From positions 6,411 through 70,410 of the forward strand of contig JAUVLW010000001.1 in NCBI GenBank assembly GCA_030600555.1: a DNA stretch of 64,000 bases, written 5' to 3'. Both the position numbers and the translations under genes were made by a program. Below are positions 13-55,138 of the stretch, piece after piece. Source of the stretch: Candidatus Aenigmatarchaeota archaeon (lineage in GTDB: Archaea > Aenigmatarchaeota > Aenigmatarchaeia > QMZS01). The notes beneath the pieces were generated by a model. It was not told where the DNA came from. It saw only the letters and a list, made by a program, of their open reading frames with translations, and made no database searches. The first letter of the stretch is position 1; every line of letters begins with the position of its first letter.

Positions 13-324
13 TTATCTAAACAGAAAATAAGAGAATATAGAATATCCTATCTTAATTAGGAAATAGATAAATATCAGGTTTACGCCTGGGTTGCTGAAT
101 CCATAAGAGAACAATATAAGGAAAGGTATTGCTAAATCAACCAGTGAATATATTTTTAACAAAATTGTCAGAGGAGGCAATATCTGAATAAATGTAGTAA
201 TTCCTCTCAAAAGGATGATTGAAATTATTATAACTGCAAACAGGTTGTTTGAATAACTCATCATAAGCAGAACACCTATTATTATGTCTATAAGCCCCAT
301 CAGGTAAATTAATATCATGAACAT
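13..324 (-). CDS. hypothetical small membrane protein
   Basis: 103 aa ORF, almost entirely hydrophobic with 2-3 predicted TM helices. No recognisable motif. Confidence 0.3.
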   Translation of the reverse strand: MFMILIYLMGLIDIIIGVLLMMSYSNNLFAVIIISIILLRGITTFIQILPPLTILLKIYSLVDLAIPFLILFSYGFSNPGVNLIFIYFLIKIGYSIFSYFLFR

Positions 325-386
325 AATTATTAGACAGGTAAATATTATTATTTGGATAATTTATAAATTTAATGATATTCAGTTAT

Positions 387-574
387 GCTTCAGTAGCTCA
401 GCAGGTAGAGCATCTGGCTGTTAACCAGGAGGTCGAAGGTTCGAGGCAACCCTTTTCAAGGTAATTGTTGAAAAAGGTCTGCACCCCAAAAATGCTCATC
501 TTTAGATGGCACCCCTTTTTGCATCGCAAAAAGAAGGACTTAATTGGGGTGAAATGAAAATCCTTCCTGAAGCG
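387..574 (+). tRNA. tRNA-Asn (anticodon GTT) with ~115 nt intron inside the T-loop
   Basis: Read directly from sequence: acceptor GCTTCAG / CTGAAGC plus discriminator G; D-arm GCTC-AGCAGGTA-GAGC; anticodon arm TCTGG-CTGTTAA-CCAGG; variable loop AGGTC; T-stem GAAGG (435-439) / CCTTC (562-566). The T-loop TTCGA|..|AT is interrupted by 445..559. The region is GC-rich in an AT-rich background. Exons: 387..444 and 560..574. Confidence 0.75.
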
Positions 575-622
575 TATTTTTTTAAAATAAAAATATAAAA
601 TTCCCAAAAAATAAAATCAAAC

Positions 623-877
623 TTATTTTTTCTTTGATTTTTTATCCCCGTCAATTTCTTTCTTTAATTTTACGTCTTTGAGTTCTTCTAGTTCCACCCA
701 CATTATCAACAATCCTGTTAAAATCAGAACTATTCCAACAGAGCCTGAGAGAAGCACTTTTAGACTAAATAAAGAGTCCACTAATCCAGCCATTTCAAAA
801 GAACTATGGAATACATACCAGGCAATCCCCGACAGGGTAATTAATACCCCAATTATTAGTTTTACTATCGTGTTCAT
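623..877 (-). CDS. hypothetical small membrane protein with Lys-rich C-terminus
   Basis: 84 aa ORF with two predicted TM helices and a charged KKEIDGDKKSKKK tail. Confidence 0.35.
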   Translation of the reverse strand: MNTIVKLIIGVLITLSGIAWYVFHSSFEMAGLVDSLFSLKVLLSGSVGIVLILTGLLIMWVELEELKDVKLKKEIDGDKKSKKK

Positions 878-916
878 ATATAATATAGGTATTAAATTAT
901 TTTGATTAGTTTTATA

Positions 917-1489
917 ATGGGATTTAGTAAATATTTGAGAGAAATCTGGAAAGCACCCAAGAAAAATGAGGTTTATAAAGAGAGATTAATAACTTATAGA
1001 AGAGAAAATGTTGTTGTTAAAATAGACAAACCAACCCGATTAGATCGGGCTAAAGCGTTAGGATATAAGGCAAAACAGGGATTTGTAGTTACAAGAGCGA
1101 AAATTAAGAAAGGAACCAGAGTGAGAACCAGAATAACAAAAGGAAGGAAACCATCAAATTTAGGTACAAGAATACCGGCAAAAAAGAGCAAACAAGTCAT
1201 AATTGAAGAAAGGGTTGCGAGAAAATTCCCAAATCTTGAGGTTTTAAATTCTTATTGGATTGGCGAAGACGGTAAAAGCACTTGGTTTGAAGTAATCTTA
1301 GTGGATAAAACTCATCCTCAAATAAGGAATGATAAAGATGTTAACTGGATGCTCGAAAGACAGCATAAAGGCAGAGTTTTCAGAGGTATGACTTCAGCTG
1401 CCAAAAAATCAAGAGGTTTAAGCCGTAAAGGAAATGGTGCTGAAAAGATAAGACCAAGTATCAGGTCAAATAAAACCCAGGGGAAATAA
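917..1489 (+). CDS. rpl15e: 50S ribosomal protein L15e
   Basis: [16 protein letters not shown].. N-terminus and the basic profile along the whole length are typical of archaeal L15e (~190 aa). The ORF-track start at 902 adds 5 residues, so the internal Met is preferred. Confidence 0.88.
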
Positions 1490-1553
1490 TTAATTTTTTA
1501 AAAAATAATTGGATTTTAGGTTATTTGCTGCGGTTTTATTCCAGAGAAATAAA

Positions 1554-2000
1554 CTATTTTTTATCAGTGCTTCCAAAACCCCCCCGACTATTTTCATCAA
1601 GCAAATCTTTATCATGAATTATATTTAAATCAGGCTTTTCAAATCTCAGGAACACAATTTGCCCTATTCTCTCGCCTTTTTCAATAATAGCTTCAGTTTC
1701 CCCAAAATTGTATAAATTTAGTTTTATTGAGTCTTCTTTTCCGCAGTAATCAAGGTCAATAATCCCCACAGAATTTAACATCATCAGGTTTTTCTTCACA
1801 GGGAGAGAACTTCTTACAAATAGAGAGACAAATATATTTTTATTGTTGAGTTTAACTATCATTCCCGTATCTACCACTTTGCTTGTCTTTGGGGAAATTT
1901 TTAGAGTTTCATTTGAGCATATATCATAACCCACAGAATTCGGTGTTTTGTAGCCAATATCATCAATTCCTTCAGGTACGTAAATTGTTCCTTCTTCCAT
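1554..2000 (-). CDS. dut: dUTPase / dCTP deaminase family protein
   Basis: GIIDLDYCGKEDSIKLNLYNFGETEAIIEKGERIGQIVF matches the dUTPase/dCTP deaminase beta-barrel motifs. The ORF-track N-terminus (to 2075) overlaps tRNA-Glu exons, so the start is moved to an internal Met (MEEGTIYV at 2000, or MLLIMEEG at 2012). Confidence 0.75.
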   Translation of the reverse strand: MEEGTIYVPEGIDDIGYKTPNSVGYDICSNETLKISPKTSKVVDTGMIVKLNNKNIFVSLFVRSSLPVKKNLMMLNSVGIIDLDYCGKEDSIKLNLYNFGETEAIIEKGERIGQIVFLRFEKPDLNIIHDKDLLDENSRGGFGSTDKK

Positions 2001-2011
2001 AATTAAAAGCA

Positions 2012-2244
2012 TGCTCCCGCCGGGATTCTCATATACCCTAAAATTACTTTTTGGGGTGCAGACCTTTTTCAACAATCACGCTGAAAAGGGTTGCTTTGAA
2101 CCCGGGTCACCGGCTGTCTCCATGTCATAGACTTTGCGTCTCATACCTTTCTTTATTAACCAATTTCTTGGTTCGGGTGTCGGCCTTTTTTTAAAGGCTG
2201 ACTTCGAAAGGCCGGGATCCTGGACCGAGCTAGACTACAGGAGC
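2012..2244 (-). tRNA. tRNA-Glu (anticodon TTC) with two introns: canonical 37/38 position (~89 nt) and T-loop (~69 nt)
   Basis: Minus-strand read: GCTCCTG-TA-GTCT-AGCTCGGTCCA-GGAT (classic tRNA-Glu D-arm); anticodon stem CCGGC/GCCGG with loop CTTTCG|A; variable TGAC; T-stem CCGGG/CCCGG; acceptor 3' CGGGAGC + A. Exons: 2244..2205, 2115..2096, 2026..2012. Introns: 2204..2116 and 2095..2027. Confidence 0.7.
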
Positions 2245-3084: not shown

Positions 3085-4209
3085 TCAACACAAAATTTCA
3101 CCTTCTCCGATTACTATTTTAGGATGGGCTCCTAATGAAAAAGGGTCTTCTTTCCACACAATTAAAGACGCGAGTTTATTTTCTTTTATTTCTCCGATTT
3201 CTTTTGCACCAATAATTTCAGCATTCTGTTTGGTTATTATTGAGATGCATTCTGCTTTGCTGAGACCAAAGTATTTGAAGAATCTTAATTGCAAAAATAA
3301 ATTTCTTTGAAGGACTACAGGATGGTCGCTTATCAAACCATATTTTAAATTAGATTTTGCAAGAAGTCCTATATTTTTCCAACTTTCATTTTTTAATTCA
3401 ACTTTAGGCGGGAAGGAATCCACAGGACCATATACCACAGGGAATCCTGAATCTTTGATTATTTTAAATCCTCTTTCTGTGTTTATGTCGCATGCGTGAT
3501 TTATCACAATGTTTTTTAGTTTGAATTCTTTTGCTATTCTAATTATTGCAATTATATCATCTTCTTTATGAACATGAATCATTAATCTTTCTTTGTTTTC
3601 AATTATCCTAATTAAATGTTCAGTTAAATAACCAATTTCTTCGGGTTTCTTTTTTTTCTTTTCAATGAGTTTTTTTGCTTTTACCGCTTCCGATAATTTG
3701 CTTCTCAAAAGATATGCTGCCCCCATTCTTGTATAAGGTCTTGAGCCTTTCCATTCAGTTGTGCTTCTTGGGTTGTAACCAAAAGCCATCTTGATTCCAG
3801 TGTATTTCATAAATGCTTCTTCGGCGTTTTTTGCGTAATTTTTTATTAAGACGCATCGCCCTCCAATTATATTTCCGCTTCCAGGCATTATATTTGAGTA
3901 TAAAATTCCATGCTCAACAGATTCTGAAAATGCTTTGTCTTCAAGATAAATTGAATCCAAAGGGTCTGCAAAAAGGAAAGGTCCCATAGGGTCGTTAGCT
4001 TCATCTTCCTGATAAGGTTCGCCGCTTCTGCATAATCCAATATGGCAATGAGAATCCACAAATGCTGGTGTAACAATTCCTTCACCAATAATTTCGCATT
4101 TTGGTTTTGTTGCGGTAATTTTTTTAATCTTTTTATCAAATATAATATAAACATTTTCTTTTGTGTTTTTTGAACCATCATACAATAATTTCGCTTTTAC
4201 CGCTTTCAT
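3085..4209 (-). CDS. amidohydrolase-family metal-dependent hydrolase
   Basis: PAFVDSHCHIG (an HxH metal-binding motif) near the N-terminus, and a C-terminal Asp-containing segment of the TIM-barrel amidohydrolase superfamily. 374 aa. Confidence 0.65.
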   Translation of the reverse strand: MKAVKAKLLYDGSKNTKENVYIIFDKKIKKITATKPKCEIIGEGIVTPAFVDSHCHIGLCRSGEPYQEDEANDPMGPFLFADPLDSIYLEDKAFSESVEHGILYSNIMPGSGNIIGGRCVLIKNYAKNAEEAFMKYTGIKMAFGYNPRSTTEWKGSRPYTRMGAAYLLRSKLSEAVKAKKLIEKKKKKPEEIGYLTEHLIRIIENKERLMIHVHKEDDIIAIIRIAKEFKLKNIVINHACDINTERGFKIIKDSGFPVVYGPVDSFPPKVELKNESWKNIGLLAKSNLKYGLISDHPVVLQRNLFLQLRFFKYFGLSKAECISIITKQNAEIIGAKEIGEIKENKLASLIVWKEDPFSLGAHPKIVIGEGEILC

Positions 4210-4231
4210 AAGTAATATTGAAATTTAATAG

Positions 4232-4570
4232 TTATAATAATTTGAGGTCTTTAATTAATTCATCAATTTTTTTGTCTTCTGCAGGACCAATCCCGAGGCA
4301 GGTAATTGTTGCGCTTGGAAGTTGGGTTAACCCGGCATCAATTACTAGATAATTTGGCAGGTTTTTTTCAAATACTCTTTTTTGTAATTCTATCAGTTCC
4401 ATTTCATCTTTAACTTTCAGAACAATTTTTTTGGCTCCTTCTTTTTCCCAGATTTCTCTCAATTGTTTATCCGCTCTTTTATAGGAACCTATGCTTGCAT
4501 GAGCAACCTGAGCCGCAATTTTTCCTTTACCCATTTTTAGATTAGTTCTAACAATAATTACTTGTTTCAT
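4232..4570 (-). CDS. pth2: peptidyl-tRNA hydrolase, archaeal type (Pth2)
   Basis: MKQVIIVRTNLKMGKGKIAAQVAHASIGSY.. is a diagnostic Pth2 N-terminus. ~113 aa after trimming a 16 aa ORF-track extension. Confidence 0.85.
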   Translation of the reverse strand: MKQVIIVRTNLKMGKGKIAAQVAHASIGSYKRADKQLREIWEKEGAKKIVLKVKDEMELIELQKRVFEKNLPNYLVIDAGLTQLPSATITCLGIGPAEDKKIDELIKDLKLL

Positions 4571-5729: not shown

Positions 5730-6038
5730 CTATTTGTAAGGGTTTCTGTAGCTTATTTCCAGTCCTCCGCCAATAGTTCTTCTGGCTTTGGTGTAATAGT
5801 TTAATTCTGTGTACTCGCCTAATAATTGGTTTATTATCGCAGTTTTCAGCTTAAATTCCGGAACTTTTTCAAGGTCCTCAAGATTGATAAAATAAGGGCG
5901 TACCCCTGAGTGGTCTTCGGTTTCATCCCATCCATATCCAATATGAGGTTTTTTACCATGAACTCTTATTTCTTCTTCATCAGGGATAAATAAGATATTT
6001 TCTCCTATATGTATAATTCGGTTTTCAGGTGATTCCAT
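5730..6038 (-). CDS. hypothetical protein
   Basis: The ORF-track version (to 6167) runs through the 3' exon and intron of tRNA-Leu, so it is trimmed to the internal Met (MESPENRIIHIG..). Confidence 0.4.
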   Translation of the reverse strand: MESPENRIIHIGENILFIPDEEEIRVHGKKPHIGYGWDETEDHSGVRPYFINLEDLEKVPEFKLKTAIINQLLGEYTELNYYTKARRTIGGGLEISYRNPYK

Positions 6039-8706: not shown

Positions 8707-9930
8707 TCAAAATTCTCCGAGATTTTTCTGTTTATACTTGAAAAATTCAATTTCTTCGTTTTCCCCCAAAGGAAGGAGTTTTCCATATTCTCCGGCTCCT
8801 CCTGGAATCTGTTTAATTTCTTCTTTCCTGAAAGCCTCAATATATTCTCCGACTTTTAAATCAACTTTTTTTAATTCTTCTATCGGAGCGTCAATTAAAA
8901 CATTAATTTCATTTCCGAATTGCTGGACAAATTTATTCCATACTCCTGAAACTGTTTTTGAAGAGAATGTTTTAATGTTATAGACCGTTGCGATTATTTC
9001 TGTTAATGGATAGATGTGAACATATTTTACCCTGTCGGGATTTCCATCGCTGTCAGAGATTTCAAGTATTTTATCAACCACTCCTTTATTTATTATTCCC
9101 CCACATTCGCCGCATTTCCAATTTAGTTTTTTCGCGTCTTCAAGTTTGTAAAATCTTAGACAATTTTTGCATCTTGACAAATGATATTTTCCGTGTTCAG
9201 GATAAAACCCGCAGTTCATGGTTACTTTTCTCCCGTCTTTCTGGTGCAGGGCTTTTTTAAGTTCGTCGTAGGTAAGGTCTTTAATTTTGAGCCTGTTGAA
9301 TTCTCTTGCAATCCTTAATGGATAAGGCGAGTGAGCATCTGAGTTTGAAAGGAAAGTTAATTTGTGCAGTTCGGAAATTCTGTCCGCCATTTTCGAATCC
9401 GCGGAAAGACCAAGTTCAAGAAAAGAAACTTTGTCAGCGTATTTTCCGTAACATTCTTTTAGTGTGTTGAAATGCGCATACATCCCAAAGTAGGGAGTGA
9501 AAGCGTGGGCAGGTCCGAACATTCCGTCGCATTCAAGAACTTTCTCCGCAATTTCTTCACCCATTATTTTCAGCCACGGTCTGCCGTCAGCGTCAAGATT
9601 GTTTGAGTATTTTGAAAGTTTCTCTCTGAGTTCATCCGCCTTTGAGAAAGAAGGCAGCAAGATTACATGATGAACTCTTCCAAGAGCCTGCACCTCAGTC
9701 TGCAAGACAAATTTTGTCTCGCTGTTTTTGTAAGTGTAAATTCCGTCTCCTTTGAGTGTTTCTTTTAAGTGGGCAAGCCATTTGTTGTGTAAGCAGTCTC
9801 CGGTTCCAAGCAACTGAACCCCTTTCAGTTTTGCCTGTTCCGCAAGAATTGGAATTTCCATTTTTTCGGAAACAGCTCTTGCGTATTTTGAATGAATGTG
9901 CAAATCCGCGTTTATTTCAAAGAAGTCCAT
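8707..9930 (-). CDS. PHP-domain phosphoesterase with C-terminal zinc ribbon (endonuclease Q-like)
   Basis: N-terminal DLHIHSKYARAVS is the PHP His motif. The C-terminal CKNCLRFYKLEDAKKLNWKCGECGG zinc finger and the ~400 aa size fit the EndoQ architecture. Confidence 0.5.
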   Translation of the reverse strand: MDFFEINADLHIHSKYARAVSEKMEIPILAEQAKLKGVQLLGTGDCLHNKWLAHLKETLKGDGIYTYKNSETKFVLQTEVQALGRVHHVILLPSFSKADELREKLSKYSNNLDADGRPWLKIMGEEIAEKVLECDGMFGPAHAFTPYFGMYAHFNTLKECYGKYADKVSFLELGLSADSKMADRISELHKLTFLSNSDAHSPYPLRIAREFNRLKIKDLTYDELKKALHQKDGRKVTMNCGFYPEHGKYHLSRCKNCLRFYKLEDAKKLNWKCGECGGIINKGVVDKILEISDSDGNPDRVKYVHIYPLTEIIATVYNIKTFSSKTVSGVWNKFVQQFGNEINVLIDAPIEELKKVDLKVGEYIEAFRKEEIKQIPGGAGEYGKLLPLGENEEIEFFKYKQKNLGEF

Positions 9931-10102
9931 ATAAGGCTTTTCTTTTTAAAAAAGAAAAACCCTTAAGCCAAAAGAAAACAATTTTTTAATACAACAACAA
10001 TGAATTTGGTATAAGTTAATAAATATGTATATATATTATATTCTCCCCGGTATGGTTTCGGCAATGCCGGGATATTATTATTGTGTATTATTAAGTAATC
10101 TT

Positions 10103-10636
10103 ATGTCAGAGAGAGTAGTTATTTTTATAGATGGGAGTAATTTTTATCACGGGCTTAAAACCAATATTGGGGTTAAAGACATTAATTTCCTGAAGTTTGC
10201 GAGAAAACTTGCGCGAAAAAGGAAACTGGTAAGGGTATATTATTACAATGCCCCTCTTGATATAAACTGCGATAAAGAAAATTATTGGAAACAGCAGGAA
10301 TTTTTTGATAAACTAAGAAAACTTCCAAACTTTAAATTGGTGTTGGTGAGATTGCAGAAAAGAATTGTAAATGAAAAACCAATTTATACAATAAAAGGAG
10401 ATGATGTATATCTGGCAACCCACCTAATTGTTCTCGCCTACAATGATGCCTATGACACAGCGATTCTGGTTTCAGGTGATGCGGATTTTATCCCCGCAAT
10501 AAAAGCAGTCCAGGCAAAAGGAAAACAGGTGGATAATTATTATTTTAACAAAGGAGGTTCTTGGCATCTAAGACACGAATGCGATAATTCAGTGTTGATG
10601 GATGAGAAGTTCATGGAGGGATGTTTGGAAGTATGA
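10103..10636 (+). CDS. NYN-domain (LabA-like) ribonuclease
   Basis: VVIFIDGSNFYHGL ... ILVSGDADFIPAI is the NYN/LabA Asp motif pattern. The internal Met MSERVV is taken as the start. Confidence 0.65.
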   Translation: MSERVVIFIDGSNFYHGLKTNIGVKDINFLKFARKLARKRKLVRVYYYNAPLDINCDKENYWKQQEFFDKLRKLPNFKLVLVRLQKRIVNEKPIYTIKGDDVYLATHLIVLAYNDAYDTAILVSGDADFIPAIKAVQAKGKQVDNYYFNKGGSWHLRHECDNSVLMDEKFMEGCLEV

Positions 10637-13114: not shown

Positions 13115-13960
13115 TCAGTGTTTGTATTTATTAGAATACCACCTTAATATTGATGCATTTTGAATCCAGGTGTTTGGAAGGTCAACAATAAGGCAAATTA
13201 TCAGTACTGCAGCAAGTTGTCCGAATACAGATGAAAACCCGGTTATCAATAAAATCGAAATAAGCGCAACCATACTTGTTGCTGTCATTGTAAGTCCGGT
13301 TTTAAGGGCTTTTTTGTATTGTTCATCAAAACTCTTTCTTGATTTAAGGGTTCTTGTGGTAAGTAAAATATCTGTGTCAACTGAATAACCAAGGGACATT
13401 AAAAGAGCGGTAAAGGTGACTATGGATAAAGGTATTGAAAAAATATTCATAAAAAGCATTGTAATTACAATATCAGAGAATGCGCACAGGACAACTGCAA
13501 ATGATGGGATGACTGTTCTGAAAAGGAGAAATATTATAATAGCTATTGCGATGAAAGCAATAAATACAGCATAGAGTATTTCATTAAAAATCCCTGCGCT
13601 TAATTTAGGGTCTATTTTGCTGAGTTCATAACTGCTGATTTCCATGGTTGTGTTAATGTCTTTTATCAGCGCATCAACATTATCTTCAGAACATTCAACT
13701 GATAATTGGGTTTCAATTGCGCTTGTTGTTGTATAGGTATTAACATGATATTTGGTTTGAATTGTATCTCTCAAAGTGGATATTTCATTATAATTTGCGT
13801 CAGAGAATGAAAAAATAAGAAGGTTTCCACCTTCCAAATCGATACTCTTATCAATAAAACTACCCGTTGTCGCTTGTTTGTGCCCTAAAAAGGCAAGACT
13901 GATTAAAAGAAATGCCAGAGTAATATAGATAAGTTTGCTGTTCATAACCATTTTATTCAT
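13115..13960 (-). CDS. secF: protein-export membrane protein SecF-like
   Basis: N-terminal TM helix, an extracytoplasmic domain, then 5 TM helices with LMSLGYSVDTDILLTTR, a SecD/F-type segment. 281 aa. Confidence 0.55.
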   Translation of the reverse strand: MNKMVMNSKLIYITLAFLLISLAFLGHKQATTGSFIDKSIDLEGGNLLIFSFSDANYNEISTLRDTIQTKYHVNTYTTTSAIETQLSVECSEDNVDALIKDINTTMEISSYELSKIDPKLSAGIFNEILYAVFIAFIAIAIIIFLLFRTVIPSFAVVLCAFSDIVITMLFMNIFSIPLSIVTFTALLMSLGYSVDTDILLTTRTLKSRKSFDEQYKKALKTGLTMTATSMVALISILLITGFSSVFGQLAAVLIICLIVDLPNTWIQNASILRWYSNKYKH

Positions 13961-31151: not shown

Positions 31152-33737
31152 CTATTTTACAATAACCCCTTCCGCAGAACTTAAATTAATTTCTCTGTAG
31201 ATAACAGGTCTCTCAGTTGAACTTAATATTTCACCCCTCCATTTTTCATCTGTTAACCTGTCGTCCATAGGCCATGCGAATTCATAGTAACTAAAAATTG
31301 GACCTACTGCAATTCCAATCCTTCCATCTTTTGCTTTATGCGCAACAACAATCCAGTCAACTTTTCCGGTTCCAACCTCAAGGACTTTCTTTGTATTTGA
31401 TTCTGTGTGAACATCCGCAATCATGCTTGTTTTAAAAGCCTCATCTTTTCCTTCAAGAACTGTTTTTTTAGTGCATTGTTTTCCAACAGGGCATCCTCCT
31501 GATTGTATTTCCAAAGCGGACGCAAGATTTTCAAGTATTGAATCAAATCTTGAATTAATAGATTTTATATAATCATAATCTTCTTCTGTTAAATTTTCCG
31601 CTTTCAGTTCTTTCTCGGAAATTATTCTCAATTTTTCCATCATTTCAGAACTTTGCTCAAGGGAACTTCGGACTTCGTCAGTTATAATCTCTTGTTCACC
31701 TAGTCCTTGTTTAAGGAAATCAATGGCGTATTTTGCTCTTGCAAATAATTCGGGGTTTGGTTCAACATAACCATAATATTTTGCTTCAATTGGATCTGGC
31801 ATTGAAGTGATTCCAAGTGCGGTTGCCCAAGTATAACTTTGCTTTACATACAAAATTGTGTCATGTCTTAATTCAGCCCAGCTTGACAAACTTGTAATTA
31901 AATCCTTTAATTTCCAGGTTTCATTTCTCATCCAGTTTGGATATCCTTCAGGTTTCTCTTTCAGAACCGGTTGTAACATCCAGAGCCAGGTATTATATAA
32001 ATTCTTTGTCCACATTTCTTCGGAGTATGAATCTATAAGGGTTCTTAGTTCATACTGTTTTTTATCATAACCGCAGTATCCATTATTATAATATTCATTT
32101 AGTGTCTGTTCTGCTTTTTTAGAACCCAGAATATTTATAACATCCAATCCTGTTGGCATAAATCTGCACACAGAATATAATTGAGATTCATTTAATCCCC
32201 CGCAAAATCCGGCGGTATGCATTTCCAATGCTTTGCTGCAGACTTCATTCCAGTACTTTGTGCGGTCTTCATCCATATAAGTGCATGTGGTATAGAATCC
32301 TTTTGGTTTTGAAAGTTTTGAATAAGTTGATTCGCAGTCCAGAACTTTTTGGTAATACGGCGATTTTACATTAGGTCCAACATTTTTGTAAACCAAATCC
32401 CCAAGTATTTGAGAATCAATTGCGTATCTTTGCCCGATTAATCTTAAACCCTGCGTCAGTTCTTTTAGGTTTCCTGCAAGGTCGATTTCAAATCCCCCGA
32501 GAATTTTCGGACCTTCTGAGTTATTTAGTTCTTTCTGTATTTTTTTTGCGACATTTACTGTAAGAGTCATTTCTTCATCAAATTCATAACCATAAACTTT
32601 TTTTATAGCTTCGTCATAATCATAAAAAGTAAAGTCATCCGATACTCCGGCAAAGAAACTTGTTATTGAATATATCTTGTTGTAGATTTCTGAAGCCGGA
32701 TAAATTTTTCCTTCAAATTTAACTTCTGCTGATTTTACTGCATCGGTCAATAGAATTGCCTGTTTTGTCCAACCATCCCCTCTTGTTTTAAAAGTAATTC
32801 TTCCAAGCCACATCATTGATTTGAAATATTGTTTTAGTCCTTCTGAACTCGTGTAATGACCTCTTGGAACATATTGCGAATAATCTTCACAGTAACATTC
32901 TCTTGTGCAGATTTCACTGTAAAATTCAACAGAGTCCCATTCTTTTCCCTGATAAAATATTTTTCCGCCTTTTATCTCCTGGCTGCATTTTTCATTTTCC
33001 CATTTAGGAAAAGCGAGCCTTAAGCATTCATCTGGGCAGTCTTTACTCATGATTTCAGATTTGAAAAATCCTTCATGCTTTTCTATTCTATCAAGTTCTT
33101 TGTTCACATCATCTGCGACAAAATAAGTGACTACATAATTAGGGTCGAGCAGTTTCATTGCAACGCTCAGGTAAGCAATATTTCTTTTTGAAAGTTCTTT
33201 TAGTTCTCCATCTTCAAACCCATTGTATTGCCTCATGGATTCTTTTATCAAAGATTTTAAAAATTCTTTTAACATTGGGGATAATTTTTTAATTTCAAGA
33301 TTCTTGAGAATCTCATTAAATTCAAGGTGGAATAAATGCAATATTGAATCTGAGGTTATAAATACAGGTATGTCTTTTTGGTTGAGGTTTAAATAAGCAT
33401 GTTCAAATCGGTCATATTCAGTTCCAGATAAAATTATGGCTCCATTATTTAGTAAAGTCTGTATTTGTTCTTCGCTTAGATTATTTCCAAATCTTTCAAC
33501 TAAATCTCTTTGGTAATTTTCCGGCAATTCTGTTAAAGGCAATTCATATTCGGAATTGTTATAAGTTTCAGGCGTATATTCATAATCTGACAGGAACATT
33601 GAAAGTCTTGGTTGTGGGATTGCGCCTGAGGAATAAACCGATTCTTTTTCACCCAGCACCGTCGGAGGGTTTGTGTAATAAAAAACTGTATAAATCGCCA
33701 CCAGAATAACTAAGGTGATTATAATTAGTTTTTTCAT
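31152..33737 (-). CDS. large secreted/extracytoplasmic protein, Cys-rich, unknown function
   Basis: 861 aa with an N-terminal signal/anchor helix and many Cys. No catalytic motif recognised. Confidence 0.5.
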   Translation of the reverse strand: MKKLIIITLVILVAIYTVFYYTNPPTVLGEKESVYSSGAIPQPRLSMFLSDYEYTPETYNNSEYELPLTELPENYQRDLVERFGNNLSEEQIQTLLNNGAIILSGTEYDRFEHAYLNLNQKDIPVFITSDSILHLFHLEFNEILKNLEIKKLSPMLKEFLKSLIKESMRQYNGFEDGELKELSKRNIAYLSVAMKLLDPNYVVTYFVADDVNKELDRIEKHEGFFKSEIMSKDCPDECLRLAFPKWENEKCSQEIKGGKIFYQGKEWDSVEFYSEICTRECYCEDYSQYVPRGHYTSSEGLKQYFKSMMWLGRITFKTRGDGWTKQAILLTDAVKSAEVKFEGKIYPASEIYNKIYSITSFFAGVSDDFTFYDYDEAIKKVYGYEFDEEMTLTVNVAKKIQKELNNSEGPKILGGFEIDLAGNLKELTQGLRLIGQRYAIDSQILGDLVYKNVGPNVKSPYYQKVLDCESTYSKLSKPKGFYTTCTYMDEDRTKYWNEVCSKALEMHTAGFCGGLNESQLYSVCRFMPTGLDVINILGSKKAEQTLNEYYNNGYCGYDKKQYELRTLIDSYSEEMWTKNLYNTWLWMLQPVLKEKPEGYPNWMRNETWKLKDLITSLSSWAELRHDTILYVKQSYTWATALGITSMPDPIEAKYYGYVEPNPELFARAKYAIDFLKQGLGEQEIITDEVRSSLEQSSEMMEKLRIISEKELKAENLTEEDYDYIKSINSRFDSILENLASALEIQSGGCPVGKQCTKKTVLEGKDEAFKTSMIADVHTESNTKKVLEVGTGKVDWIVVAHKAKDGRIGIAVGPIFSYYEFAWPMDDRLTDEKWRGEILSSTERPVIYREINLSSAEGVIVK

Positions 33738-33868
33738 AATGATATTCGGAATTTTGATTATATAAGGAATTTGATAATTTCAATATTTGGTTTTGTTTCA
33801 GAAGATCTCCAGATTTCCTGTAAATTTGGGTATTTATAATTTAAATTACTATTAATTAGTGGAACAAA

Positions 33869-52615: not shown

Positions 52616-53267
52616 CTAAGGTTAAATGGTCTTTTTCCATAATTTCAATTGTTTGGTTGATATTTGGTCCTCTAATATGAATAAAATAATTCTCTGATGT
52701 TGTTTTTAGGTCTATTTTTGGAAGGGTTTGATCGGACTCTAAGTTTTTTTCTAGATTATTAATAAGTTTAGATTGTTCTTCTTTTGAACATTCTTTGGGT
52801 TCGTGGTTGAATGTGTTATCTTGATTAAGTATACCTATCATTTTTGCACCTTCGATAAAGAATTTCCCAACTCTAGACGCATATCTTTCATCTACCTCAA
52901 ATTCTTTGATTAAAACTTTATCTAGTATTTTAATAGGTAATTCTGAATTTTTATATTTATCAAATATCTCTTGAAACAAAGGTGCTTTGAAAAATGCTTT
53001 TTTCAATTGTATTTTTTTTTCTTGATCATTATATGCCAATTTATAATCTTTATATAATGGAGATATTGATAAAGTTCCTTTCTTGACATTAATTAAACCG
53101 AATTTTTTAGTAGCGGTAATCCTATCTACAAAACCTCCACTAAGTTTTTTCCCTAATTGTGAAGCACAGGTTTCTTTATTGCAATCTCCACCTAATTTAT
53201 CCACAACGACCGCTAGATCCATAGCAGACCTGAATGATGTTTTTGGATAGTTAACAATTCTTGGCAT
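52563..53267 (-). CDS. hypothetical protein (cassette gene A)
   Basis: 234 aa. The N-terminal ~70 aa may be helix-turn-helix-like. Confidence 0.4.
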   Translation of the reverse strand: MPRIVNYPKTSFRSAMDLAVVVDKLGGDCNKETCASQLGKKLSGGFVDRITATKKFGLINVKKGTLSISPLYKDYKLAYNDQEKKIQLKKAFFKAPLFQEIFDKYKNSELPIKILDKVLIKEFEVDERYASRVGKFFIEGAKMIGILNQDNTFNHEPKECSKEEQSKLINNLEKNLESDQTLPKIDLKTTSENYFIHIRGPNINQTIEIMEKDHLTLVDATLSLIKKKLSKKDE

Positions 53268-53685
53268 TCATATCACCTTATAATTTATTATACTAAAAAA
53301 CTTTATATACTTACTATATTTAGTTATGTATTTTAGTTCTTGAAGTCATAATAGGATTTTTTTCTATATATATTCTGTTTTGTAGATATTTATTATTTTA
53401 TCTCAAATCTAAAATTATGCGGACACAGACGTTTTCTTAAAATGTAAAAAATTGGTTAATAGGGATAAGAACCTTTTGTACTTTGAGTAATGAAAAAATA
53501 TGGACAAAAACGCACAAAATAGGCTGAAGTTACTTAGATTAACGGGATAATTAAGTTCAAAGAAGTATTTTCCTAATTAGACAATCCATTTTATCACAGA
53601 TCACATCATGATTACTTTGTATAAGATTATCTTATTTTAAATTCTAATCACAATCCCCAAATAAATCAAACCCTCTTGATTAATT

Positions 53686-54372: not shown

Positions 54373-54720
54373 ATGAAAAATAGTTTAATTGTTGGAATTG
54401 TCGTTTTTGTTTCATTAATTGCTTTAGGAGTTTATTTTTATCCTCAACAAGAAGAATATTGTTATCTTAGAGAGAAAGAAGGATTGTCTATTCCTGAAGA
54501 TATGAATCAGGGATTATCTCTTTCTGAAGCTAAAGAAATAGCAGTCAATAGTGAATGCGGGGATAGACTTAAAGACACTTATATGTGCAATGAAGATACA
54601 GGGAGTTGGTGGATTGATTTGAATATTGAAAGAGAAGGATGTAACCCTGCATGTGTTGTTTATGTAGTATCAAAAGAAGCGGAAATAAACTGGAGATGCA
54701 CGGGTTTAATTGAACCCTGA
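54373..54720 (+). CDS. small secreted Cys-containing protein
   Basis: 115 aa with a signal/anchor helix and 6 Cys. Confidence 0.4.
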   Translation: MKNSLIVGIVVFVSLIALGVYFYPQQEEYCYLREKEGLSIPEDMNQGLSLSEAKEIAVNSECGDRLKDTYMCNEDTGSWWIDLNIEREGCNPACVVYVVSKEAEINWRCTGLIEP

Positions 54721-54925
54721 TTTTTTATAATGAGTTCGGCATAATTGCGTTTATAGGGCTATTCTTCCCAGATAAGGCAATCTATTTCATAATAGTTCCC
54801 GCAATCTTAATTGCCCTGTATACGGTAATCTACTCTTATCTTGAATTTCAAAACCAACTTAAAAAATAAACTATTTCAATTCTATTTGTCAAATTTAAAA
54901 CAAAGTTTTACTTACAAAATTAGAA

Positions 54926-55138
54926 TTATTCGGAAGTGTCCTTTTCTACATTTACTGCTTTTGGACCTTTATCTCCCTGTTCTATCTCGAACACAACTTT
55001 GTCTCCATCATTTATTTTTGTTCCTTCTTTAAGACCTGTGCTGTGCACAAAGTACTCTTTTCCATCTTCTCCAGCAATGAATCCAAAGCCTTTGAAGTCG
55101 TTGAAGAATTTTACTTCTCCTTTTATTTGATCTGTCAT
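54926..55138 (-). CDS. csp: cold-shock protein (CspA family)
   Basis: ..[30 protein letters not shown].. carries the RNP1/RNP2 motifs. 70 aa. Confidence 0.85.

Follow-up and report, generated by a model that had tools for sequence, protein, structure and literature searches.

Introns in the T-loop of archaeal tRNA genes are known from ARMAN-2 (Ca. Micrarchaeum), where a 13-nucleotide (nt) intron between positions 59 and 60 (59/60) of the pre-tRNA-Cys(GCA) forms a relaxed hBH motif and is cleaved in vitro by the organism's endonuclease, and where the pre-tRNA-Pro(GGG) is interrupted at both 53/54 and 59/60 (Fujishima et al., 2011; PMC3239211). In the Thermoproteales, related introns in unrelated tRNAs were attributed to large-scale intron transposition, as far as this work (Fujishima, 2010) is relayed in PMC4033280 and PMC4090602. 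Here we describe tRNA introns in a 64-kb stretch of a Candidatus Aenigmatarchaeota genome (contig JAUVLW010000001.1; the whole stretch of 64,000 nt is referred to as the window), in which the genes for tRNA-Asn(GTT) and tRNA-Glu(TTC) are both interrupted in the T-loop by introns that share a 47-nt core. The introns belong to a paralogous family in an Aenigmatarchaeota genus, and both the kind of intron and the 59/60 site are already known. We consider it likely that they are bulge-helix-bulge introns at 59/60 and that their core, which is not a required element, has been kept alike by copying between tRNA genes. Text searches of the available literature found no paper describing tRNA introns of Aenigmatarchaeota.

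With ARMAN-2, the introns described here share the 59/60 site, a relaxed hBH/BHL junction and a place among the DPANN archaea; the ARMAN-2 endonuclease also has an extra loop. They differ in length (13 nt in ARMAN-2; here 35-118 nt, including one or two hairpins inside the intron), and whereas ARMAN-2 has a three-unit epsilon2 enzyme, the endonuclease gene found among the relatives of the window would encode something resembling a single alpha-type subunit. Disrupted tRNA genes make up 56% in ARMAN-2, whereas every gene found here is interrupted in the T-loop. The original prediction, an earlier reading of the window made from its letters alone, had called the interrupted position non-canonical; this holds for 59/60, although the site had already been documented in the ARMAN-2 tRNA-Cys (PMC3239211). 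The Thermoproteales families, as far as they are described in the sources named above, likewise consist of very similar introns in tRNAs of different specificities, at matching positions and within one lineage, and their spread is read there as recent and as having occurred at the DNA level. They come from a different phylum with a different enzyme type, whereas exchange among the introns studied here appears modular, with the 5′ hairpin swapped and the 3′ part orthologous. Unlike in those families, again as relayed, exchange here would also have taken place between sites already holding introns.

The window was compared with related loci gathered around homologues of ribosomal protein L15e and of the Nre protein. 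The neighbouring L15e is 96% identical to a protein of a Candidatus Aenigmatarchaeota bin, its lower matches are also from Aenigmatarchaeota, and the GC content is 30-35%. Three sister species (L004, L015 and L017) show ~84-91% nucleotide identity to the window (~87% genome identity for L015), and in the more distant lineages L006-L014 L15e is 63-77% identical. An independent assembly, the short-read contig L003 (Logan SRR18936875), is 100% identical to window positions 463-2078; it starts and stops inside the two copies of the core, so that in this data set the core behaves as a repeat that breaks assembly.

ARAGORN, one of the tools by which the original prediction was to be checked, made no tRNA call in the whole 64-kb window before in-silico splicing, and called no gene with a 59/60 intron in the window and the loci; the run covered all loci except L003, L016, L018 and L019, which are copies of window, L015 and L017 sequence. 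Its sole call in the loci, tRNA-Arg(CCT) in L010/L011, misplaces the intron, the true insert being at 54/55. In Rfam searches of the window, at the gathering score and at E <= 1, the only match was to the 5′ part of tRNA-Asn (394-455, the 5′ two-thirds of the gene), with no other family, and L001 and L002 gave no match. In-silico splicing restored canonical cloverleaves of tRNA-Asn, tRNA-Glu and tRNA-Leu(AAG), which ARAGORN then called as a 73-nt tRNA-Asn(gtt) after removal of 446-560, a 75-nt tRNA-Glu(ttc) after removal of both introns and an 84-nt Leu(aag). Runs of T follow the tRNA 3′ ends. The T-loop inserts that had been predicted in tRNA-Asn and tRNA-Glu were thus found where expected (115 and 69 nt); an 89-nt intron at 37/38 of tRNA-Glu had not been noticed, and a third gene, tRNA-Leu(AAG), came to light in an acceptor/T-arm scan.

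In the window and the related loci, 20 distinct tRNA genes were found and all 20 are interrupted in the T-loop, 17 at 59/60 and three at 54/55, a count to be read with the proviso that genes interrupted solely in the D-loop or in some other unusual way could have evaded both scans. T-loop interruption appears to be universal among the tRNA genes of this Aenigmatarchaeota clade. The 54/55 sites hold mini-inserts of 15-16 nt, in tRNA-Glu of L006 and L010 and in tRNA-Arg(CCT) of L010.

To describe the splice sites, the junction was tabulated for 17 introns of the 59/60 type. T-loop bases 54-57 (UUCG or UUCA) pair fully with the four intron bases before the last two in 15 of the 17, and the remaining two form three of the four pairs (random-tetramer expectation, 3%); G57 is paired with U or C, and A57 with U. 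A 3-nt bulge made up of the two final intron bases and U60 adjoins the T-stem on its 5′ side (AAU in 14 introns, AGU in two and CAU in one), and bases 58-59 together with the first intron base sit between the 4-base-pair (bp) helix and an intron hairpin, P1. Minimum-energy folds of T-arm and intron show the T-stem, the 3-nt bulge, a short helix and then P1, with or without a second helix, P2. This is the bulge-helix-bulge folding by which the original prediction was to be judged, and it was borne out for the helix and the 3′ bulge, with a relaxed 5′ site. In core-type introns, P2 and a linker occupy the strand that faces bases 58, 59 and the first intron base, giving a three-way junction. The motif is relaxed in these introns and near-strict in tRNA-Leu(CAA) of L006 and tRNA-Leu(AAG) of the window.

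The canonical 37/38 intron has the same 5-bp stem and the same pairing of the first four loop bases to the intron; the T-arm motif would also match it in the 3-nt bulges, clearly so at the 3′ site, and in cuts 2 nt 3′ of the 4-bp helix. Because T-arm and anticodon arm both consist of a 5-bp stem and a 7-nt loop, the T-arm motif copies the 37/38 geometry; it differs from it in lying in the T-arm, in the relaxed 5′ site and in the quick turnover of the T-loop introns. By the rule that each strand is cut 2 nt 3′ of the 4-bp helix, the introns were placed at 59/60. An interruption after the fifth T-loop nucleotide (58/59), as originally predicted, is compatible with the sequence as well, A being the last intron base, but 59/60 is preferred because of the bulge-helix-bulge geometry and because G59 is conserved in all four Asn orthologues, in which the following base is variable. 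The 3′ splice site of the tRNA-Asn intron is accordingly proposed between 560 and 561. Taken together, the introns are best read as archaeal protein-spliced introns of the bulge-helix-bulge type at T-loop position 59/60, with a relaxed, hBH/BHL-like motif. In the precursor, the T-stem would stay intact and bases 54-57 (UUCR) would pair near the 3′ end of the intron, EndA would cleave both strands 2 nt 3′ of the helix, and the exons would then be joined by an RNA ligase.

The original prediction had noted that the two introns start almost alike, and this was confirmed: the core modules are identical at 44 of 47 positions, and the 28-mer TTGTTGAAAAAGGTCTGCACCCCAAAAA is identical in both introns, with no match in 100 shuffles. 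The core had been placed a few bases off, at 447-497 and 2093-2046, and was corrected to 446-492 and 2094-2048. The common 3′ ends were also recovered, both inserts ending in ATGA(A/G)AAT. The core folds into P1, a 13-bp hairpin that runs from the first intron base onward. After it comes ACCCCAAAA, whose partner is a G-rich stretch close to the intron 3′ end; this second pairing (P2) encloses a variable loop. The near-identical core gives way abruptly to P2 loops that cannot be aligned. Pairing in P1 amounts to 97% over six copies and includes two compensatory double changes, against ~45% for slid controls. Selection within the core acts mainly on keeping the hairpin folded. An Asn-specific expansion inside P2 (window 493-543) contains GGCACCCCTTTTTGC, which resembles CTGCACCCCAAAAA of the core and may be a partial internal duplication.

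Seven T-loop introns contain the core, distributed over five tRNA species (Asn, Glu, Leu(CAA), Arg(TCT) and Ser(TGA)), which agrees with the lineage-specific intron family that had been predicted; the suggested search of relatives yielded further copies in L001, L002, L004 and L015. A covariance model built from five copies scored these at 81-89 bits and the independent copies of L015 at 80 bits (Asn) and 44 bits (Glu), and had no match outside tRNA T-loops in ~295 kb. Local alignments of introns of the core family scored 49-84, compared with a shuffle maximum of 25. Genome and metagenome collections were scanned with an exact 23-mer of the core, which returned one locus among species-representative genomes (L001, tRNA-Leu(CAA) of Aenigmatarchaeota CSMAG_2581) and one in JGI metagenomes (L002, tRNA-Arg(TCT)). 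Both 23-mers lie in the T-loop, and both genes also have introns in the D-loop and the anticodon loop.

Ten other 59/60 introns lack the core, including those of tRNA-Leu(AAG) in the window, tRNA-Glu in L004 and tRNA-Asn in L006 and L013. They have the same junction, with the 4-bp helix and the 3-nt bulge ending in U60, and a hairpin after the 5′ site. In pairwise comparisons of seven of the ten with the core family, the alignment was no better than with shuffled sequence; the few core-less introns that the covariance model reported at all had E = 0.1-0.5, mostly via the exon part. Because core-less introns keep the same site and junction, the core sequence is not required for recognition.

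To assess how the core is related across genes, its copies were compared between orthologues and non-orthologues. The Asn core of the window differs from its L015 orthologue at seven of 47 positions (40/47 identical), four of the seven changes being two compensatory pairs at the base of P1. From non-orthologous copies it differs at three (window Glu), two (L001 Leu) and four positions (L002 Arg), and the Asn core of L015 is nearest to the Ser copy of L004. Two core sub-types, GCA...CUGCACCCCAAAAA and U[GA]A...CUCAACCCCAAAAC, are scattered across orthologues, the variable sites are mosaic, the loop variant AGCGU is common to both sub-types, and four site pairs fail the four-gamete test. In L004, which is as distant from the window as L015, the T-loop intron of tRNA-Glu has a different 5′ part without the core and a homologous 3′ part. 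In L015 a ~60-nt insertion replaces the apex of P1 of tRNA-Glu.

The exons are 100% identical between species at ~84-91% genome identity, as in tRNA-Asn of the window and L015 (73/73) and in tRNA-Glu of the window, L004 and L015, while the introns vary. Between the window and L015, the interior of P2 of tRNA-Asn is ~50% identical, the hairpins within it being kept through double changes, and the last 21 nt of the intron are identical; the core itself (85%) is no better conserved between these orthologues than the genome average. The intron of tRNA-Leu(AAG) is present with a 42-nt deletion in L017 and replaced by a different one of 45 nt in L015 and of 39 nt in L012, and orthologous introns of tRNA-Asn and tRNA-Leu(AAG) cannot be aligned in more distant relatives. 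The canonical 37/38 intron of tRNA-Glu is, from its sequence, inherited vertically in the five sampled lineages (window, L004, L006, L012 and L015). It is the same intron with an internal deletion in L015, and its bulge-helix-bulge register (CUUU/GGAG with AC/A) folds at no more than 2.6 kcal/mol above the minimum energy.

Repeated copying of introns, or gene conversion at the level of modules, is favoured above plain vertical descent and above a function tied to the sequence, because cross-gene copies are closer than orthologues, because the variable sites are mosaic and because the module was swapped in tRNA-Glu of L004. The mobile or duplicative intron that the original prediction had considered fits this pattern. 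We infer that tRNA genes would receive copies of introns or of their 5′ modules from one another, ectopic gene conversion between T-loop introns being the most likely route. The core would then be the 5′ module (P1 and one strand of P2) of a single intron family present in at least five tRNA species, and dispensable for cleavage. If gene conversion is the exchange step, tracts would be expected to run from the T-arm exon to near CCCCAAAA.

Several points weigh against this reading. Splicing, ligation, the precise points of cleavage and the order in which introns are removed are deduced from geometry, conservation and precedent, and no EndA gene was found in the 64-kb window. Instead of forming a clean 3-nt bulge, the 5′ site lies at the junction of the central helix, P1 and P2; the first intron base is able to pair within P1, a 58/59 placement yields an equally valid cloverleaf, and the minimum-energy fold of tRNA-Glu favours pairing one position out of register (UUC/GAA and a 1-nt bulge). 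The case for gene conversion is built from six short sequences with few informative sites, homoplasy such as independent compensatory changes could mimic exchange of the core, and the exon homology on either side (GGTTCRA / AATCC) offers very little length for homologous recombination. The collection scans relied on an exact 23-mer, and a degenerate pattern would reach further.

A stronger version of the copying reading would have the T-loop intron obligatory in every tRNA gene of the clade and the core a selected element (for instance a scaffold for folding or quality control, a site of protein binding or a stable RNA derived from the intron) that was spread by module-level gene conversion, which we regard as rather unlikely. 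If it were true, all tRNA maturation would pass through T-loop splicing, and the clade would offer a natural system for following tRNA intron turnover between species that have diverged by ~12%. It is doubtful, too, that the core is a selected functional RNA module, such as a protein-binding element, a chaperone for folding of the precursor or a stable and possibly circular intron-derived RNA. The compensatory changes in P1, the abrupt limit of the core, and the double changes that preserve pairing inside P2 would be explained by such a role, as would the conservation in the orthologous Asn intron of the P1 stem, the P2 stem and the final 21 nt around a P2 interior that is only half identical. 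Yet the core is missing from ten 59/60 introns, among them the orthologous tRNA-Glu intron of L004, the P1 apex of tRNA-Glu in L015 has been swapped for an insertion, there is no Rfam match and there are no C/D boxes, and the identity of core orthologues does not exceed the genome average. Function alone would also leave unexplained why copies in different genes are closer than orthologues. A C/D box guide RNA of the tRNA-Trp type was rejected, as the C box RUGAUGA and the D box CUGA occur in none of the seven core-type introns. Self-splicing group I or group II introns were likewise rejected, since Rfam at E <= 1 matched only tRNA and the two core-bearing introns of the window measure 69 and 115 nt, where hundreds of bases would be expected.

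Introns might also be delivered or replaced by mobile elements that integrate at attachment sites in the 3′ part of tRNA genes, the core being a remnant of such an element, as in published models (Randau and Soll, 2008; Sugahara et al., 2012; PMC3293823). With the model for Ca. Caldiarchaeum subterraneum (Sugahara et al., 2012), our loci share the use of tRNA 3′ parts as attachment sites and a change of intron content between close strains, and in L009 an insertion with an integrase gene interrupts tRNA-Glu with its junction exactly at T-loop position 58/59. In contrast to that model, no element carrying the core was found: the L009 insertion shows none, the core is confined to tRNA T-loops in the ~295 kb covered, and an exact 20-mer of it is absent from IMG/VR viral contigs. 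An element specific for one tRNA cannot, moreover, account for the same module in five tRNAs, and we regard delivery by such elements as improbable. At the L009 locus (5794-5808, 9274-10365), all that is left of tRNA-Glu beside the dUTPase gene is its final 16 nt (AATCCCAGCAGGGGCA, T-loop 58/59 onward). Upstream of this remnant lies foreign DNA with a Phage_integrase gene, and identity to the uninterrupted L006 locus begins exactly in the T-loop. The insertion is probably an integrated element, with its other end beyond the contig.

That the core is a scaffold required by the endonuclease of the lineage for T-loop introns, one of the two explanations put forward in the original prediction, is very improbable. 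In every copy P1 does start right behind the 5′ splice site, where it could form an inner helix, and the other 59/60 introns likewise open with a hairpin there. It is the architecture that is common and not the sequence, however, the introns of tRNA-Leu(AAG) in the window and of Glu, Asn, Ala and Leu in relatives being unrelated to the core (E = 0.1-0.5), and the ten core-less introns retain the junction. Pseudogenes or assembly artefacts, which could be suspected because standard tools miss these genes and the lone ARAGORN call misplaces its intron, are excluded for all practical purposes because the exons are perfectly conserved and the feature recurs in all 20 tRNA genes of ten loci in independent assemblies, with T-runs after the 3′ ends and the short-read assembly L003 reproducing the sequence.

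The candidate endonuclease was found in the lineages L006-L008, which encode a 233-amino-acid EndA with both Pfam domains (PF02778 and PF01974; L006 17708-18409), and in L001, where an 80% identical copy (3989-4531) adjoins tRNA-Leu(CAA). Its closest solved structures are the homotetramer subunit of M. jannaschii (1a79, E = 4e-29) and the catalytic subunit of N. equitans (3iey_A). Immediately ahead of the catalytic His lies an insert of six basic-type residues relative to M. jannaschii (KLKRGPKT); N. equitans has an insert there as well. An assignment of this insert as the 'L3 loop' was rejected, L3 being placed in the C-terminal region and the insert lying beside the catalytic His, where the loops L1 and L2, which broaden specificity, sit. 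In DPANN archaea, extra loops of the endonuclease have been linked to more disrupted tRNA genes (Kaneta et al., 2018; PMC5829648). We predict that the relaxed T-arm motifs are substrates of a single alpha-type EndA whose basic insert is small. The protein also has a lysine-rich N-terminal extension of ~55 residues, and in L006 its gene lies ~560 nt downstream of tRNA-Leu(CAA), with a Peptidase_M54 gene in between, and directly upstream of a TruB/Pus10-like gene.

Table 1. Coordinates of the interrupted tRNA genes of the window and of their introns and core modules
Feature	Position	Strand	Remarks
tRNA-Asn(GTT) gene	387-574	+	exon 1 387-445, intron 446-560, exon 2 561-574
T-loop intron of tRNA-Asn, 115 nt, proposed site 59/60	446-560	+	junction table; fold of P1, P2 and a free 3′ tail
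Core module, copy 1, 47 nt	446-492	+	P1 hairpin 446-482, then 5′ strand of P2 (ACCCCAAAAA)
T-loop bases 54-57 (UUCG) of tRNA-Asn	440-443	+	5′ strand of the 4-bp central helix; partner 555-558 (UGAA)
3′ strand of the central helix (UGAA) and bulge A-A/U60 of tRNA-Asn	555-558 and 559-561	+	adjoins the T-stem; minimum-energy fold shows the 3-nt bulge
tRNA-Glu(TTC) gene	2244-2012	-	exon 1 2244-2205, exon 2 2115-2095, exon 3 2025-2012
37/38 intron of tRNA-Glu, canonical, 89 nt	2204-2116	-	~90% identical in L004
T-loop intron of tRNA-Glu, 69 nt, proposed site 59/60	2094-2026	-	junction table, folds
Core module, copy 2, 47 nt	2094-2048	-	sequence comparison with the tRNA-Asn copy
tRNA-Leu(AAG) gene, third in the window	6251-6062	-	acceptor/T-arm scan; core-less internal control
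T-loop intron of tRNA-Leu(AAG), 106 nt, proposed site 59/60	6181-6076	-	sequence unrelated to the core

The surroundings of the tRNA genes were also inspected. tRNA-Glu and a downstream dUTPase/dCTP-deaminase-like gene lie on the same strand with zero spacer (window 2012-2027, minus strand). The first in-frame ATG of this gene overlaps the discriminator base of tRNA-Glu, a second ATG follows 12 nt downstream, and the mechanically called open reading frame 1554-2075 enters the tRNA-Glu intron only via an upstream TTG. tRNA-Asn precedes the L15e gene in the window, L015, L006 and L013 and is absent there in the sister species L004/L005; the corresponding place in L004 (9380-10010, set against window 300-620) is taken by ~90 nt of sequence unrelated to it. 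tRNA-Leu(AAG) has an A at the wobble position, which is unusual for archaea; a tRNA-Leu(AAG) with A34 has been reported in ARMAN-4/-5 (PMC3239211).

Outside the 59/60 introns, a second paralogous intron family was seen in the D-loop of tRNA-Arg(TCT) in L002 (3588-3332) and tRNA-Ala(GGC) in L004 (2553-2796). Its members share the mutually pairing ends AAAACTGCAAACA ... TGC(G/A)GTTTTG, and the Ala copy has ~100 nt extra. The genes with 54/55 inserts lie at L006 11212-11025, L010 11339-11199 and L010 6816-6905, in lineages whose L15e is ~76% identical, and positions 49-52 of the T-stem have a possible pairing partner in the insert (CUGG/CCAG, GCAG/CUGC). Further candidates from the acceptor/T-arm scan, for example at window 13548-13874, 53198-53424 and 54592-54976, lie inside coding sequence and were dismissed as chance matches. 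In L017, a stretch without called genes that corresponds to window 31156-33780 turned out to be simply an uncalled open reading frame of 861 amino acids. The promoter and terminator scan used bacterial-type models and is uninformative for an archaeon.

Beyond what was known, our results point to an apparently universal T-loop interruption among the tRNA genes of the clade, to the blindness of tRNA finders towards it and to modular exchange of introns. Since ARAGORN and Rfam miss nearly all of these tRNA genes, tRNA counts and completeness estimates for Aenigmatarchaeota will be wrong until T-loop introns are modelled. It has been pointed out that incomplete tRNA sets in DPANN archaea indicate undetected disrupted genes (Kaneta et al., 2018; PMC5829648), and the genes missed here correspond to that gap. 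In sister species ~12% apart, intron replacement, module swapping and large insertions and deletions occur at a fixed site between identical exons, and the debated mechanism by which non-canonical tRNA introns are gained and spread thereby becomes testable with population data.

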